This document shows positions 390-54,799 of a stretch of DNA of 64,000 bases, in pieces. Within the stretch, counting starts at the first letter, position 1. Every line of letters starts with the position of its first letter. The DNA comes from Octopus vulgaris (Eukaryota), in contig OX597831.1 of assembly GCA_951406725.2 (NCBI GenBank), forward strand, positions 38,192,001-38,256,000, written 5' to 3'. The notes below the pieces were generated by a model. The model searched no databases. It saw only the letters and a list, made by a program, of their open reading frames with translations, and had not been told where the DNA came from. The translations under genes and the position numbers were made by a program.

Positions 390-570
390 ATATATTGTAA
401 ATACAAAACAAGCACAAAAACAACAAGGCGAGGACGTGGTACATGTAAAGTATTAGCAAACGCTTAGGGAAGGAAAGACAGATGGTTTAACGTTTCGAGC
501 ACAGCTCTTCTTCAGAAACAGAGGAAAGTCCTATGGAGGAGGATGATAAAGGAAGAAAACCCCGAACGAT
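390..570 (-). mobile_element. HHR-bearing short element, family H1
   Basis: Homologous copies at 23213-23325, 35322-35532 and 53620-53835. The 3' end of every copy abuts TA-rich microsatellite. Confidence 0.7.
485..519 (-). ncRNA. Minimal type I hammerhead ribozyme motif
   Basis: Reverse complement reads gttt-CTGAAGA-a-GAGC tgt GCTC-GAAA-C-GTT-aaac. It has a canonical CUGANGA/GAAA core, 4-bp stems I and II, and a palindromic AACGUU stem III. Confidence 0.78.
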
Positions 571-13987: not shown

Positions 13988-14404
13988 ACTCTTTAGTCTT
14001 CTACTCTTTTACTTGTTTCAGTCATTTGACTGCGGCCATGCTGGAGCACCACCTTTAGTCGAGCAACTCGACCCCGGGACTTATTCTTTTTGTAAGCCCA
14101 GTACTTATTCTATCGGTCTCTTTTTGCCGAACTGCTAAGTGACGGGGACGTAAACACACCAGCATCGGTTGTCAAGCAATGCTAGGGGAACAAACACAGA
14201 CACACAAACACACACACATATATATATATATACATATATACGACGGGCTTCTTTCAGTTTCCGTCTACCAAATCCACTCACAAGGCATTGGTCGGCCCGG
14301 GGCTATAGCAGAAGACACTTGCCCAAGATGCCACGCAGTGGGACTGAACCCGGAACCATGTGGTTGATTAGCAAGCTACTTACCACACAGCCACTCCTGC
14401 GCCT
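13988..14404 (-). mobile_element. Full-length tRNA-headed SINE family A (CORE-like domain)
   Basis: Head aggcgcaggagtggct, A/B boxes, cttgggcaagtgtctt domain, internal TA/TG microsatellite and (aaagagt)n tail. Confidence 0.92.
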
Positions 14405-14450
14405 TGTCTAAGAAAACTAATACAATGCGACTAGGAAATAAAATTTTGAT

Positions 14451-14853
14451 AGGCGCAGGAGTGCCCGTGTGGTAAGTAGCTTGTTTACCAACCACATGGT
14501 TCCGGGTTCAGTTCCACTGCGTGGCACCTTGGGCAAGTGTCTTCTACTATAGCCTCGGGCCGACCAAAGGCCTGTGAGTGGATTTGGTAGACGGAAACTG
14601 AAAGAAGCCTGTCGTATATATGTATATATATATGAGTGTATGTGTGTCTGTGTTTGTCCCCCTAGCATTGCTTGACAACCGATGCTGGTGTGTTTATGTC
14701 CCCGTTACTTAGCGGTTCGGCAAAAGAGACCGATATAATAAGTACTGGGCTTACAAAAGAATAAGTCTCGGGATCGAATTGCTCGATTAAAGGCGGTGCT
14801 CCAGCATGGCCGCAGTCAAATGACTGAAACAAGTAAAAGAGTAAAAGAGAGTA
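14451..14853 (+). mobile_element. Full-length SINE family A
   Basis: Same structure as the previous copy, arranged head-to-head with it. Confidence 0.92.
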
Positions 14854-17060: not shown

Positions 17061-17884
17061 TTTCTGAGCTAGCCCCTCCAATTCCAGCTTCCAATTCAGC
17101 TCCCTGTCCCCTATCACACAGCTGTTTAATTTATATGCATGCCTGCCTGCCCTAATAACACTTATACAAAAAACCAGTACTTTTATTTGAAAGTCAACAG
17201 AAAGAATATTTTATTGCTCTTCTTATCTAATATCTGATGCAAATCCTGTGACCAAATATTTGAACTAAGATATCTCAGCCTCCAACAACATATCATCATT
17301 TCTTTCAGAAATTTCCTCTCAAATTTCGTTACTAAAATTTTCCTATTGAATTATGTTTTCTAAGCTATACAATTGAGATGGGAGAAAATAATTAAGTTAC
17401 TATTCCTAGCATACGGATTCCCAACGTAGAGGGTTCCTTGTAGTCTTGAGAAATACCTCATTTATATTTTCAGGTTGAAGTGGAATAACGCCTATTTAAT
17501 CACCATTAAAGTGTATTGTCGTACTTTCCTTATTTCAGATAATTCCTTTGATGTTTAGAAATAGACATTTACTAGACTTTATATATATATATATATTAGA
17601 ATTGGATTAGAATTGTAAAATTCACTTCCACTCCTCAGCATGATATTTCAATATTATAAATTTGAAAATGCTAAACCTAACCTTAGCATCTCCGCCCAAC
17701 CGACATCGAAACATAACACAAGGTAACCAGCATTTCCGAATTTATATAGACAAGTAATTTCGTATCTCTCCATATAAATTTACCATCTGCGTCACAAGAC
17801 AGTACCGCAGAAAAAAATGCAGTTTGCTAACAGGAGTGAAAAATTATCATTATATCTATATCTATAATAATTTTTTACACTATA

Positions 17885-17947
<63 letters not shown>

Positions 17948-18029
17948 GTGAAAAGGAACACACGAGTTGATATATATGAAAAAACAAGTCAAGATAGAAA
18001 ATGCTAAAATAATTTTATAAAGAACATTT

Positions 18030-18067
18030 CAGTACCTGTTTCGGTCATTTTGAGACCTTTTCAACTG
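18030..18067 (-). ncRNA. Hammerhead ribozyme motif, U3-A8 core variant
   Basis: Reverse complement reads cag-TTGAAAA-GGTC tcaaaat GACC-GAAA-CAGG-TA-ctg. Confidence 0.7.
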
Positions 18068-18421
18068 TAACGATTAAATAATTAAATTTAGAAAAATTAA
18101 AAGAAAAGTTTTTTTAGAGGAATATTTGTATAGTGTTCAAATATAAGTGGAATTCTGCCTTTCTCTGTCTCCTTTGTTTGCCCTTGTGTGTTCGATCGTT
18201 GTGAATTCTTGGTAGAGTAGAAGAAGAAGGTTGATGAGGAGAGGGGGTGGAAAAATTTGGGAGTGCCTTGTTTGTCGTATTTTGAATGGTCAGTGACGGC
18301 TAGCAGTTGCAGTTCAATTCAGGAGGATATTTCTATTGAAAGGTTTGTTTATTGAATTTGCGTAGGTGTTTTACTAAAAAGCATTAGTGATAAAGTTAAG
18401 AGGTAGAAGGTGGAGCAGAAG

Positions 18422-18509
18422 CTTCTTCTTCTTCTTCTTCTTCTTCTTCTTCTTCTTCTTCTTCTTCTTCTTCTTCTTCTTCTTCTTCTTCTCCTCCTCC
18501 TTCTTCTTC
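18422..18509. repeat. (CTT)n microsatellite inside the inverted-repeat spacer
   Basis: Directly visible. Confidence 0.95.
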
Positions 18510-18614
18510 AGAGACAGAGAAAGGCAGAATGCCACTAATATTTGAACACTATACAAATATTCCTTTAAAAAAACTTTTCTTTTAATTTTTCTAAATTTAA
18601 TTATTTAATCGTTA

Positions 18615-18652
18615 CAGTTGAAAAGGTCTCAAAATGACCGGAACCGGTACTG
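18615..18652 (+). ncRNA. Hammerhead ribozyme motif, U3-A8 core variant (GAAA mutated to GGAA)
   Basis: cag-TTGAAAA-GGTC tcaaaat GACC-GGAA-CCGG-TA-ctg, with palindromic ACCGGU stem III. Confidence 0.62.
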
Positions 18653-18698
18653 AAATGTTCTTTATAAAATTATTTTAGCATTTTTTATCTTGACTTGC

Positions 18699-18830
<132 letters not shown>

Positions 18831-19157
18831 ATTTAAAGCTTATACGCGATTATAGGCGAATTTATATGTAACTACTGTCTATATGTATGTGTATGTCTTT
18901 GTATCAGTATACGTGTATCATTTCTCTCTCAGGATCTTTAATAACAAAAATCTACATGTGCAAACATTCAGTAGAAATGCATAAACGTGTAGATGCATAC
19001 AAGTTAATTCTTCATCACAGGCATCATTTACAGCACAGCTCACCTCAGCATCCAAACTCTTCCATACAAACACGCACACACACATACAATCATACACACA
19101 TACGCACCCATGTACGAACACGAATATGCGTATATTTATATATACAGACAATTAGAA

Positions 19158-39525: not shown

Positions 39526-39940
39526 AGGCGCAGGAGTGGCTGTGTAGTAAGTAGCTTGCTTACCAACCACATGGTTCCGGGTTCAGTCCCATTGCGTGGC
39601 AACTTGGGCATGTGTCTTCTACTATAGCCTCGGGTCGACCAAAGTCTTGTGAGCGGATTTGGTAGACGGAAACTGAAAGACGCCCGTCGTATATATGTAT
39701 ATATATATATATATGTATGTATGTATGTTTGTATGTCTGTGTTTGTTCCCCCAACATAAACTGACAACTGATGCTGGTGTGTTTACATCCCCGCAACTTA
39801 GCGGTTCGGCAAAAGAGACCGATAGAATAAGTACTGGGCTTACAAAGAATAACTCCTGGGGTCGATTTGCTCGACTAAAAGACGGTGCCCCAGCATGGTC
39901 GCAGTCAAATGACTGAAACAAGTAAAAAAGAGTAAAAAGT
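39526..39940 (+). mobile_element. Full-length SINE family A
   Basis: Complete from head to tail. Confidence 0.92.
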
Positions 39941-40145
39941 ATATCTAAGAATCCCAATCGTGAATCCAGAATCATATCTGGAGTATTCACGGTTTCAAAT
40001 ATTATCTTTAATGTCAACGTATACAACAACAGCTTGAAATACGTTTTCCCACATAACCCTTTTAATATGCTTATATTCATTTATGTATGTTTGTATGTTT
40101 GTTTGTATGTATGTTTGTATGTATGCTTGTATGTATGTATGTATG

Positions 40146-40363
40146 TACTCTTTACTCTTTTACTCTTTTACTAGTTTCAGTCATTTGACTGCGGCCATGC
40201 TGGAGCACCGCCTTTAGTCGAGCAAATCGACCCCGGGACTTATTCTTTGTAAGCCTAGTACTTATTCTATCGGTCTCTTTTGCCGAACCGCTAGGTGACG
40301 GGGACGTAAACACACCATCATCGGTTGTCAAGCAATTCTAGGGGGACAAACACAAACACACAA

Positions 40364-40412
<49 letters not shown>

Positions 40413-40578
40413 TACGACAGGCTTCTTTCAGTTTCCGTCTACCAAATCCACTCACAAGGCATTGGTCGGCCCGGGGCTATAGCAGAAGACACTTGCCCAA
40501 GATGCCACGCAGTGGGACTGAACCCGGAACCATGTGGTTGGTTAGCAAGCTACTTACCACACAGCCACTCCTGCGCCT
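40146..40578 (-). mobile_element. Full-length SINE family A, tail-to-tail with the previous copy
   Basis: Complete from head to tail; very similar to 13988-14404. Confidence 0.92.
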
Positions 40579-40779: not shown

Positions 40780-40821
40780 GTACAACGCATGTTTCCACCT
40801 GTTCTGGGTCTCTTCAGGTAC
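40780..40821 (-). ncRNA. Type I hammerhead ribozyme motif followed by AATAAA
   Basis: Reverse complement reads gtac-CTGAAGA-gACC cagaaca GGTg-GAAA-catgc-GTT-gtac-ccAATAAA. Stem I extends via ttatt/aataa. Confidence 0.65.
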
Positions 40822-46310: not shown

Positions 46311-48040
46311 ACGTTCCCTATTGGCCACAGGGCCCACACAAAATCAAAAGGATATTACGCAAAATGAACAAGGGACGGAGGATTTAGACGATGCACATAA
46401 ATTGTAAATAAGCAAAAGTAAGTAACAATCGAATTTCAACAAATATATTCCCCATTTGGGGGGAAAATCCAAAGAGGTGCGTCCAAGGAAGCTCTACACA
46501 CGATGGAAACCCGATCACACAGGATGCCGCATGCATGCACCCCTGTTGTCTTCAACCTCCCCAGCCTACAAGCGCATACTTAGTGTAGGCCCATTAACAC
46601 GGGCCATCCTGGCCGCATTCATCCACCTTTCAACGAAATTACTGGGTGACAGCTCCTCCCTCTCCACCCTCACCTTCATTTTCAGGTCGAACCTGAAAAT
46701 GTTAACGAGTCTTTGGCCGCAGAGGAACGATTCTATCTAGAACTCTTTCACACGCGTCCACCACACAACCTCTTTCGACATAGCCACCAGAAAGAGAAAA
46801 ACTGCCTGACCTTCCTAGCCAAAGGAAGGTGGCGGGGTATCTTCATGATGGAATCAGACGAGAGTCGGATCCGTCCCTCATGCAACACCGACTATTCGGC
46901 AAAGCTCATTAAGCCAGTAATACCCGGGCACTGTAAGAGTACGTGCAGGATGGCTTCATTGCTCTGCGCGCCTCTCGGACAGGACCGACGGACCACATTT
47001 CCGTGTCTGTAGAGCTTGTCTCAAACTGGTAGAGGTCCCCACCCCGTAGCAAAGCTAGGCCAGGGATTTCAGGAAATTATCTATGGACTTTAACGTTCTC
47101 CAGAAACGACCAGCCAACTGATCATCTGCAACGCCCAGAAATACCCCCAGAACGTCGTCACACTTACTCTCCACTAATACCCTATAGAACTTCATTGTGG
47201 GGCTTCCACCGACCGCATCACCCGACTGGCTTAGAAATATGAGCACTTGAAAAATACTCTAAATATCAAACGCCCTGTCTCGGTCTACGCTTGATCCTGA
47301 ACTGTTCCTCCGTCAAAGAGACGAGCAGCGGGGAAGCGCGTTTAACAAACGGCGACCACATCTGTTCACCAATAAACTATTGCTGGAGATATCGCAGCCT
47401 TAGCGCATGACTGCGCATCATTAGCCACGGAGTCCCCAGAACTCCACACAGCAGATGCTGAGAGCAAATGGATCATCTGGCAAGCGGAACCTGTCCTTTC
47501 CACAGAAAGTGGAAGAGCAAGCTATCCAGCTTAATCAACCACGAAGCAGGGCACCGAAAGACGGTCAGGCGGTAATAGATGTACGTATTTTCTAGCTCCA
47601 TCCGACTTTTCATGCACAGTTTTCTCACGCCCCACTTCTGGATGAGATTGACCGCCCTGCTTGTGACCTTCTTCGAAGTTCTTGTCCACTTGGAGATTTA
47701 GACAAAACCAGACACCGAGCAGTTTAACCGATTCTTCTGTCCAGCCTCCAACTACACTGTCGGTTGGCATGGACCTGGCCCACCAGGTGCCGAGCTGTAG
47801 GCCTACTGACATCTCCTGATTAATCTTTCCTCCTTTCACCCCTTCGTATTCCTTTAGTGTAATGTGAATCACCACGATTTCCGAAAAGTACCCATTAGCT
47901 TTGTCCACCGAGCATATGTCGCTATACAATGGAGCAATCCAGCCACTGAAAACGGGAACAAAACCAGCAGCCTTCAGGACAGCCGCCAAGTATTTATTGT
48001 CGACCTTATCAAAAGCTTTCGATTAATCTAAATTGATCCA
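46311..48040 (-). mobile_element. 5'-truncated, decayed Tx1/L1-like LINE (RT to 3' end)
   Basis: INLD*SKAFDKVDNKYLAAVLKAAGF...WIAPLY...NG; KINQEMS...VKLLGVWF; LFHFLWKG; degenerate C-terminal CP...H.L.QCP. Ends in (ATC)n. Confidence 0.85.
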
Positions 48041-48780: not shown

Positions 48781-49916
48781 AAGATATTGAAACTAACGGA
48801 TATAAACATCTGCGAATTATAGAATGCGACAATATCAAAGAACGTGAAATGAAGGAAAGCTTTAGGCGAGAATATCTCAGAAGAACCAAGTTAATTATGG
48901 GAAGCAGACACGACAGGAAAAACAAAATTAGAGCAATGGACACATGGGCTGTTTCCTTAATGAGATACGGCGCAGGTGTTGTTGGGTGGAGAAAGGGCGA
49001 TCTTGAGGAAATGGACAGGAAAACTAGGAAAGTAATGAGAATTAACAAGGAACTATACTCGAAAAGCAATAGTGACAGACTGTGAGAGCCTAGAACCAGG
49101 GGTGGAAGAGGTTTCATAGGATGCAAAACTTGTGTTGTCAACGAGAACAAGAGTTTGAGGTGGCTAAAAAAAAATGCAAAGGGAATCATTTCTCGCTTCT
49201 GTTAGAATTAACAATATAATACCTTCTGAAAATGTGATACACCCACAAACGTTTAAGAAAGAAGATGAAGAAGAAAGAGTAAACAACTGGAAAATGAAAT
49301 CACTGCAAGGGCAATACGTCAGAGGAATCGAAGGAAAAGATGAACACTTGGAGATGGCTAAGAAAAAGTGATCTGAAAGGAGGCACTGAAGCATTGATAG
49401 GCAGCTCCCAGGAACAAGCTCTGAGAACTAAATACAATAAGTTCTAAATGTATAAGAGCAACAAATCGCCTCTTTGTAGGGTTTATAGCAGTAGAAACGA
49501 AACAATCTCATATATTGTGAGTGAATGTAGCAAGCTGACCCACTAAGCACAACAAAATGTGGCATGATAATGTGGCTAAGTTCGTCCGTTGGAGACTGTG
49601 AAAAGTATGGTTTGAACCGAGGATGGAAATGGTACGAACATTAACCAGAAGGAGTTACTGAGAACATTGAACATAAGGTATTGTCGGATTTTACATTCCA
49701 TTCTGACTTCCTCGGAGTCTCCCAAGGCTCGGAGACCAGATAGTGTTGTGGTAGATAGGGGAAAAGAGAAAACCAGGATCACAAATATTATAATACCTGG
49801 GGATTCATGCATAAGTGAGAAAAAACTAGAAATGATTGTAAAGTACAGATTACTAAAATACGACATTGCAAGAATGTGGACTACGAGGAGAATGTCTGTC
49901 ATTCAAGTAGTTGTAA
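48781..49916 (+). mobile_element. 5'-truncated R4/Dong-like LINE with restriction-like endonuclease remnant
   Basis: YKHLRIIE (YKYLG-like), NKIRAMDTWAVSLMRYGAG...DRKTRK, PRTRGGRG, QEQALRT, CR...ETISHIVSEC, HDNVAK, WYEH.PE, ARRPDSVVVD...EKKLE.IVKY. Abuts (TAA)n, the known Dong target. Confidence 0.88.
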
Positions 49917-50086
49917 TAAATGTATTTTTAGAGGAAAAATTAATGGATTTGTTCCCTTATAAGGTTTTTTTCACGCTAAATACTTGATAAATTCTTATAA
50001 AGATTTTATCCTATTTTTCAATTATATATGTGTGTGTATGTATATATATACATGTACATATGTAGAGAGACACACACATACATGTG

Positions 50087-53906: not shown

Positions 53907-53958
53907 TATATATATATATGAAAGAAGGTTTGAAAATGCAATTTTAAAAGATGTATAT

Positions 53959-54004
53959 TCACTTGACCGGTTTCACTTTTTTAGAAAATGATTGTCAAAA
54001 GTAA
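53959..54004 (-). ncRNA. Hammerhead ribozyme motif, U3-A8 core variant
   Basis: Reverse complement reads ttactt-TTGACAA-tc-ATTTT ctaaa AAAGT-GAAA-CCGG-TC-aagtga. Stem I is 6 bp, stem III is the ACCGGU palindrome, and the triplet is GUC. Confidence 0.68.
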
Positions 54005-54328
54005 CATGGAAAAGCTTTGTTGTGCTAGGTACTGGATGCCACAAAATATTGCAATGCATATATATATTCTTTGATAATAATAAGAACATGTTAAAAACAA
54101 TACATATATTTTCTGTAAACTGTCTTTTACATTTTCTTATTATTATCAAATAATGTATATATGTATTGTAATTTTTTGTGCCTAATATTTTAATGAACTT
54201 TTTAATATTTTCTCAAGACTTTTCCTTGTTAACTGTTTTTAACATGTTCTTATTATTATCAAAAAATGTATATATGTATTGTAATATTTTGTGACAACCA
54301 GTACCTAACACAACAAAACTTTTACATG

Positions 54329-54374
54329 TTATTTTTGACAATCTTTTTCTAAAAAAGTGAAACCGGTCAAGTGA
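54329..54374 (+). ncRNA. Hammerhead ribozyme motif, U3-A8 core variant
   Basis: ttattt-TTGACAA-tctttttctaaaaaagt-GAAA-CCGG-TC-aagtga. Confidence 0.62.
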
Positions 54375-54799
54375 ATAAAGATCTTTTAAAATTGCATTCT
54401 CAAACGTTCTTTCATATATAATTCCACTCGTGCGGTACCTTACAACTTCACTGTGTTATATATATGCATATAAGTGTGTATACGTGTGTATACATATGTA
54501 TGAAAATATACTTGAATGTGTGTGCATGGAAGATCTATTTTTACAAACCTCTTAATTTTCTCATATGCGCTAGTTCATTCGTTTTAGACCATATCATCCA
54601 CACCCAAATATTTGCAGTCAACTTCAAGTTTACATTTTCCATTGCTGAAAATTGGAATAATAAATAACATATAAGTACTCGTGATTGAACGCTTAAAATT
54701 ACTTCATTATAACATCAGGAGCACGTTATTTTCTTCATCCCGGAAACCGGGATTCATCGTACGGTCCACACTTACAAAGCGGTACGGATGTATACCGAA

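Follow-up and report, generated by a model that had tools for sequence, protein, structure and literature searches.

What kind of event leaves two hammerhead-shaped motifs facing outward from the arms of one inverted repeat, inside a TA microsatellite of an octopus, and would such ribozymes still cleave where they lie? The locus in question lies within a 64,000-nucleotide stretch of DNA (the window). What lies there is likely all that decay has left of a Penelope-like retrotransposon that inserted in that microsatellite. More specifically, we consider it highly probable that the outward-facing pair of 3′ ends is a single 5′-truncated insertion of a Penelope-like element (PLE), with ribozymes that are predicted to be inactive at this locus. 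The PLE open reading frame, with its telomerase-like reverse transcriptase (RT) and GIY-YIG endonuclease, is absent from the copy at 17946–18706. Since no PLE protein-coding frame was found, PLE membership rests on architecture and no clade is assigned: the locus is classified as a PLE-type 3′ remnant, short of a proven PLE or clade member.

The two arms (17985–18171 and 18511–18697) are 187 nt each, 97% complementary (mismatched at 6 of 187 positions) and separated by 339 nt. The left flank is a (TA)n target array (17881–17945, no strand assigned). It is followed, all on the minus strand, by a one-sided 3′ tail (17946–17969), which is covered by family contigs and missing from the inverted copy; an internal (AT)4 tract (17970–17977), which is the end point of the untailed copy; the left arm, representing the 3′ end of the main copy (17985–18171); and the spacer (18172–18421), an upstream part of the main copy that belongs to the same repeat family at lower depth. 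The inversion junction holds a (CTT)n tract on the plus strand (18422–18510, with (CTT)n itself filling 18422–18509). Beyond it, the right arm (18511–18697, plus strand) is the inverted second 3′ end, more strongly 5′-truncated, whose internal AT tract merges into the right flank (18698–18832, no strand assigned; the (AT)n array is 18699–18832). On the minus strand, the main copy extends from 18421 down to its tail at 17946; on the plus strand, the inverted copy spans the sequence between the (CTT)n tract and about 18706. The right arm probably extends through 18706, this last part being the internal AT tract, with a 6-nt T run lost. With the right arm reaching that far, the part found at the left end only is 24 nt (17946–17969); measured from the ungapped arm, the one-sided tail is 39 nt.

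A hammerhead-shaped 38-mer occurs twice in the window, outward-facing and each time one mismatch away from the two-arm consensus. Shuffled sequence contained no match to it (100 shuffles), and a strict type I descriptor had no hit in 200 shuffled windows and a single hit in 20000 shuffled arms. The left motif (18067–18030, minus strand) is a minimal type I hammerhead with a 3-bp stem I and a 4-bp stem II: the core from U3 to A9 lies at 18064–18058, GAAA at 18042–18039, and the predicted cut falls after A17 (18033), following GUA and 87 nt from the tailed end. The second motif is at 18615–18652 on the plus strand. In both, the core is UUGAAAA, in which U3–A8 forms the Watson-Crick 3–8 pair. The lesions differ. 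In the left copy, a change at 18037 gives the stem III hexamer ACAGGU in place of ACCGGU, so the palindrome is lost there with the catalytic core intact (G12, A13, A14, A15.1, U16.1 and H17 are all present). The right copy keeps the ACCGGU palindrome and fails that set through a core lesion, A13G at 18641; A13 is part of the consensus core in the available portions of PMC7151607 and PMC3088659. Neither copy matched Rfam at the gathering score: Hammerhead_HH9 scored both at only 16–17.5 bits, with a cut-off of 52. The microRNA-like Rfam matches were discarded as the purine/CTT fold-back at the junction. The original prediction had described a 187-bp inverted repeat with outward-facing hammerheads and one lesion per arm, and PLE-type asymmetric inverted ends in (TA)n. 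Both descriptions stand, the first with 6 of 187 differences and no shuffle match and the second with its one-sided tail between the two flanking arrays.

Two PLE traits are present here, a hammerhead near the 3′ end and an inverted 5′-truncated copy at the 5′ end, and a tail at one end only is found as well (24 or 39 nt, and about 36 nt in a second element described below). According to the available part of PMC8557442, PLE insertions carry an inverted 5′-truncated copy and a 30–40 bp one-sided tail, and (TA)n targets occur in the Naiad and Hydra clades. The available part of PMC11167929 reports that purified Poseidon protein cuts and extends both strands, with two RT start sites delimiting the tail. 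Our locus shares with these insertions (PMC8557442; Poseidon PAc, PMC11167929) the outward-facing 3′ ends, the tail at one end and an AT-rich target; unlike the published insertions, it has no ORF left. With the AT tract counted with the arm, the 24-nt tail falls below the published 30–40, which is a point against the PLE reading. The untailed end also differs: here it is a tract identical to the target, whereas the PAc RT start, as far as that text goes, is not homologous to the cut DNA (PMC11167929).

For a single PLE insertion, the element’s endonuclease would nick both strands of the (TA)n array, and two cDNAs would be primed in the 3′ region of the element RNA, one at the tail end and the other at the internal AU tract. 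Both cDNAs would stop early and then join head to head at the element’s CTT/GAA microsatellite. On the sense strand of family copies, (CTT)n lies immediately upstream of 18415, and because family contigs enter the same triplet repeat past that position, the junction is placed within the element’s own microsatellite. The first 5 bases on each side of 18421|18422 are complementary. A pure snap-back origin of the inversion was rejected, since complementarity to the spacer ends with those first bases after 18421. Priming through base-pairing to the target, or endonuclease cutting of the tract, would explain why untailed ends lie at the AT tract. In an active family, dimer formation via the ACCGGU palindrome would let the motif cleave after GUA, at a site that, judging from known PLE hammerheads, would lie between tandem terminal repeats of the full-length transcript. 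At this locus each copy has since mutated, and in read-through RNA from either strand the motif would be buried in a 187-bp hairpin.

The arms have diverged by 0.033 (about 3.2%), i.e. about 0.016 per arm, which agrees with the earlier view of a fairly young insertion. The insertion would be some 4–5 million years old, provided that the octopus scale of 0.09 per 25 million years given in the available part of PMC13282606 applies. An editing check had also been proposed: A-to-G on the sense strand accounts for just 1 of the 6 arm differences, so the arms bear no editing signature.

Part of the stretch is contained in 20 of 24 listed runs, under four organism codes. The contigs of four runs that aligned to 17946–18421 numbered 2506, 2710, 1413 and 51, the first three sets coming from runs under three organism labels. 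Summed contig depth, which is not copy number, was 153,000–310,000 over the arm and 36,000–89,000 over the main spacer in run X1, and on the same measure, again not copy number, the drop from arm to spacer was steeper in X4 and X5. The contigs show a very abundant family with a bias to the hammerhead end. Among the loose ends listed, 41 contigs of X4 exit the element at the internal AT tract into TA-rich sequence and 34 contigs of X1 exit at 17981. The self-complementary stem III of the original prediction is a family property: at 18037, the letter that gives ACCGGU makes up 97–99% of depth in the three larger, DNA-type runs. Core positions are absent among the variant rows (best 40 of 67), and core conservation is seen only as such absence. 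The stems that had been expected of the family also pair, with 3 bp in stem I and 4 bp in stem II, and in the second element they do so with other sequences. A C11.1-to-U variant, also a CpG-type change, reaches 16–31% of depth in the family, and G10.1-to-A appears as a loose end among those listed; if linked, the two would be a putative compensatory pair.

These family data bear on the reading that survives best beside the preferred one, and that we regard as a serious but tentative possibility: the family may be a non-autonomous, microsatellite-rich, SINE-like PLE derivative that has no ORF of its own and relies on the enzyme of a different PLE. No frame is open in the spacer, and stops remain in all frames when family-majority letters are used. 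The family enters (CTT)n upstream, and its contigs also run into CT-rich repeats near 18154–18230; both observations would suit such a derivative, and putative non-autonomous PLE derivatives are described in the available part of PMC8557442. Searches for coding sequence found 0 Pfam families in the 6 frames of the spacer, no homologs in its three sense frames at E ≤ 1 (0 of 50, 0 of 31 and 0 of 65 candidates, which is weak evidence), and no RT or GIY-YIG frame among the 122 ORFs of the window, 0 of which scored above a Pfam cut-off for any family. With no Pfam match, no homolog in the sense frames and persistent stops, the PLE ORF end once hinted at in the spacer did not materialize, and the spacer is likely 3′ untranslated sequence. 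The 3′ depth bias, however, would arise just as well from a long element subject to 5′ truncation, and a non-autonomous origin would alter the status of the family and leave the insertion mechanism unchanged. Elsewhere, a loose pattern matched viral contigs 4 times, with stem I and a cleavage triplet missing from all 4; two further searches of the viral contigs gave 0 and 0, and metagenome contigs contained 0 and 0 family relatives. Prokaryotic genome contigs, used as a control, gave 8 matches to a core-only pattern, all 8 lacking the stems.

The inverted pair could instead reflect two separate events, in which members of one family inserted head to head into a single microsatellite, or an assembly artefact that created the inversion. 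The family is certainly abundant, and the contig alignment covered 17946–18421 only, short of bridging the junction, but we judge this origin very unlikely. No TA sequence separates the copies, and the same build is found again at 53913–54456. The arms agree at all 5 of the listed sites with a 31–53% family split, as would be expected from one template lineage, and these shared letters together with 6 private differences are unlike a collapsed assembly. Since the arms agree at the split sites and yet have private changes in each, they point to one event followed by decay, in keeping with a single PLE insertion.

The second element (53913–54456, plus strand) is divergent but similarly built. 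Its inverted arms (53913–54099 and 54234–54420) are 187 bp with 15 differences (8% divergence), and a tail of about 36 nt (54421–54456) is found on one side only. Its outward-facing U3–A8 hammerhead motifs (53998–53965 on the minus strand and 54335–54368 on the plus strand) have a UUGACAA core, GAAA, ACCGGU and a GUC triplet; stem I is ACUU/AAGU, and stem II is U-A-rich with a U-U mismatch at its base, which is a point against the hammerhead and PLE reading. Both elements have the U3–A8 core, the ACCGGU palindrome, the inverted layout and the one-sided tail, as well as an internal CATATATA tract lying 44–54 nt past the cut site, plus a short ACTCGTG motif in their tails, and in both the untailed copy ends at the internal AT tract. 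The compensatory U3–A8 core of the original prediction thus recurs in both copies of the first element and both arms of the second. Because the second element combines the same core with different stems, the hammerhead fold is not due to chance, and this recurrence in two elements would be the best evidence here, at the level of sequence comparison, for a selected fold. The spacer of the second element contains a 74-nt partial direct repeat.

The same comparison weighs on a further reading, in which the feature is a MITE at TA with 187-bp terminal inverted repeats and the hammerhead shape is incidental or captured. Long near-perfect inverted repeats, TA flanks and high abundance without coding capacity all fit a MITE, but the ends are asymmetric, with a one-sided tail in both elements, the arm-to-spacer depth ratio is greater than the twofold expected of a fixed MITE, and a ribozyme core has been kept, with different stems, in two divergent families. 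We therefore consider a MITE very unlikely.

As for activity at this locus, a stem III self-duplex is predicted at −8.3 kcal/mol for ACCGGU (the family majority and the right copy), and the left hexamer is predicted at 0.0 kcal/mol for self-pairing and −2.3 when its partner is intact. When the whole element was folded, stems I and II had a pair probability of 0 on either strand. Each strand has one sense ribozyme only, which is lesioned and is transcribed after its antisense copy; together with the zero probabilities of the stems, this leads to a predicted long hairpin and no cleavage should the locus be transcribed, and both ribozyme copies at 17985–18697 are predicted to be inactive. The idea that cleavage would compete with a hairpin does not fit these folds, nor one lesioned sense ribozyme per strand. 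Although the catalytic core of the left copy is intact and family sequence occurs in contigs of X13, a run guessed to be RNA (those contigs are family-wide rather than locus-specific), a working RNA switch that pits self-cleavage against the long hairpin in a host read-through transcript is extremely improbable, given the single sense copy per strand with the antisense copy made first either way, the unpaired stems, A13G in the right-copy core, the self-complementarity lost in the left copy, and no host exon found near 17985–18697 among the 122 window ORFs.

Much of what the locus displays is in print for PLEs. In the available part of PMC4209133, a U3–A8 core is described in the Cercyon PLE of Schistosoma mansoni (about 1,300 hits), a UUGAAAA core identical to the present one appears in Fig. 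S3, dual PLE hammerheads lie on opposite strands 100–700 bp apart, and PLE hammerheads have a palindromic stem III, act as dimers and show low activity. The portion of PMC3088659 at hand describes natural U3–A8 covariation and cites earlier proof of activity. The U3–A8 pair, which had been thought surprising, is therefore not novel (PMC4209133, PMC3088659). Our motifs share with the Cercyon type the UUGANAA core, GAAA, a short stem I and a palindromic stem III region, as well as the 3′-end location and opposite-strand pairs a few hundred bases apart. Compared with the hammerheads seen in PMC4209133, those here have no bulged base before stem II, a stem II of only 4 bp, a 2-nt loop III giving a 6-bp palindrome, and a GUA triplet; in shape they come closest to the C3–G8 motif of Marsupenaeus japonicus in Fig. 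S3.

The AT-rich stretch at 18068–18150 (minus strand), with TTACAG at its end abutting stem I, has the look of an intron 3′ end, comparable to the Penelope case in the available part of PMC4209133; it is a candidate only, and no GT donor was found for it. At 18049, a loose end marks a divergent subfamily that has the core and TTACAG at stem I with different sequence upstream, which hints at a conserved splice acceptor at the 5′ edge of the ribozyme.

Among PLE clades, Hydra would fit in part: the (TA)n target agrees, the hammerhead shape only partly so. In the available part of PMC8557442, Hydra-clade PLEs likewise have (TA)n targets, a hammerhead ~50–100 nt from the 3′ end and an AC...GU stem III, and many Hydra rows share the U-U juxtaposition at the base of stem II with our second element; all the Hydra hammerheads listed there, unlike ours, have C3–G8 and a stem III of 3–4 bp. 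One octopus family is listed in that clade, and the hammerhead and 3′ end of Hydra-1_Obim, compared by eye, match neither element. The octopus Naiad PLEs (PMC8557442, file S5, in the part available) also have (TA)n targets, inverted ends and a tail, but Naiads are described as having no canonical hammerheads, unlike the present element. A Naiad origin, which would explain those missing hammerheads, was rejected, as the 3′ ends of Naiad_Obim and Naiad_Ovul do not match. The motif in hammerhead context had no match in the available Naiad file S5, in which line breaks can hide motifs. Non-LTR retrozymes, from what is available of bioRxiv 10.64898/2026.07.22.740005, are similarly non-coding and PLE-related, with a type I hammerhead; they are head-to-tail tandem units, whereas here the pair is inverted and the window holds only two copies of the motif.

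The literature on octopus PLEs, cephalopod hammerheads and U3–A8 cores yielded no description of the family, which the Zenodo library of PMC13282606 could hold. As U3–A8 cores, opposite-strand pairs, inverted truncated copies and one-sided tails are all published for PLEs, the feature is not new. Lunse et al. 2017 reportedly deals with dimeric PLE hammerheads and may already list the present family. The locus shows, in an ordinary and well-preserved form, the paired ribozyme-bearing ends that PLE insertions leave behind, and the known U3–A8 hammerheads gain a host, octopus. What may be new is that, in both elements, the untailed end falls at an internal (AT)4 tract matching the (TA)n target; the literature covered, including that on Neptune, microsatellites and pLTRs, described no internal target-like tract at a tail boundary. 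If untailed ends are primed at a target-like tract, they offer a simple, countable test of site choice and tail formation in microsatellite-targeting PLEs. It is conceivable, though doubtful, that the two elements represent an undescribed (TA)n-targeting PLE lineage of at least two families, with a fixed U3–A8 pair and an internal AU tract, 45–55 nt beyond the cut site, whose annealing to the nicked (TA)n target primes the second cDNA in the manner of telomerase. If so, template–primer pairing would account for both the microsatellite targeting and the one-sided tail, and CUGANGA-based searches would overlook a large ribozyme class in this host.

Further C3–G8 motifs near 515 and 40817 indicate that such elements are commonplace in this genome. 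The first (486–518, minus strand) is a canonical C3–G8 minimal hammerhead motif with a bulged A, a 4-bp stem II and GAAACGUU; situated between two (TA)n arrays, it is likely the 3′ end of another PLE family. The second (40781–40821, minus strand) is hammerhead-like, with a CUGAAGAG core, a 4-bp stem I, an AC...GU stem III and a short stem II, similar in shape to the Hydra-clade motifs. Two frames (47534–48022, minus strand, and 49616–49984, plus strand), neither of which matched Pfam at E ≤ 0.01, resemble by eye fragments of non-LTR retrotransposon RT and restriction-like endonuclease. Inverted pairs of about 200 bp are common in the window for reasons other than PLE insertion: 2 of the 4 longest belong to an unrelated repeat. 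At 14060–14780 and 39526–40578, an abundant SINE-like repeat distinct from the present family forms inverted pairs that are about 90% complementary and would likewise fold into long hairpins if transcribed.
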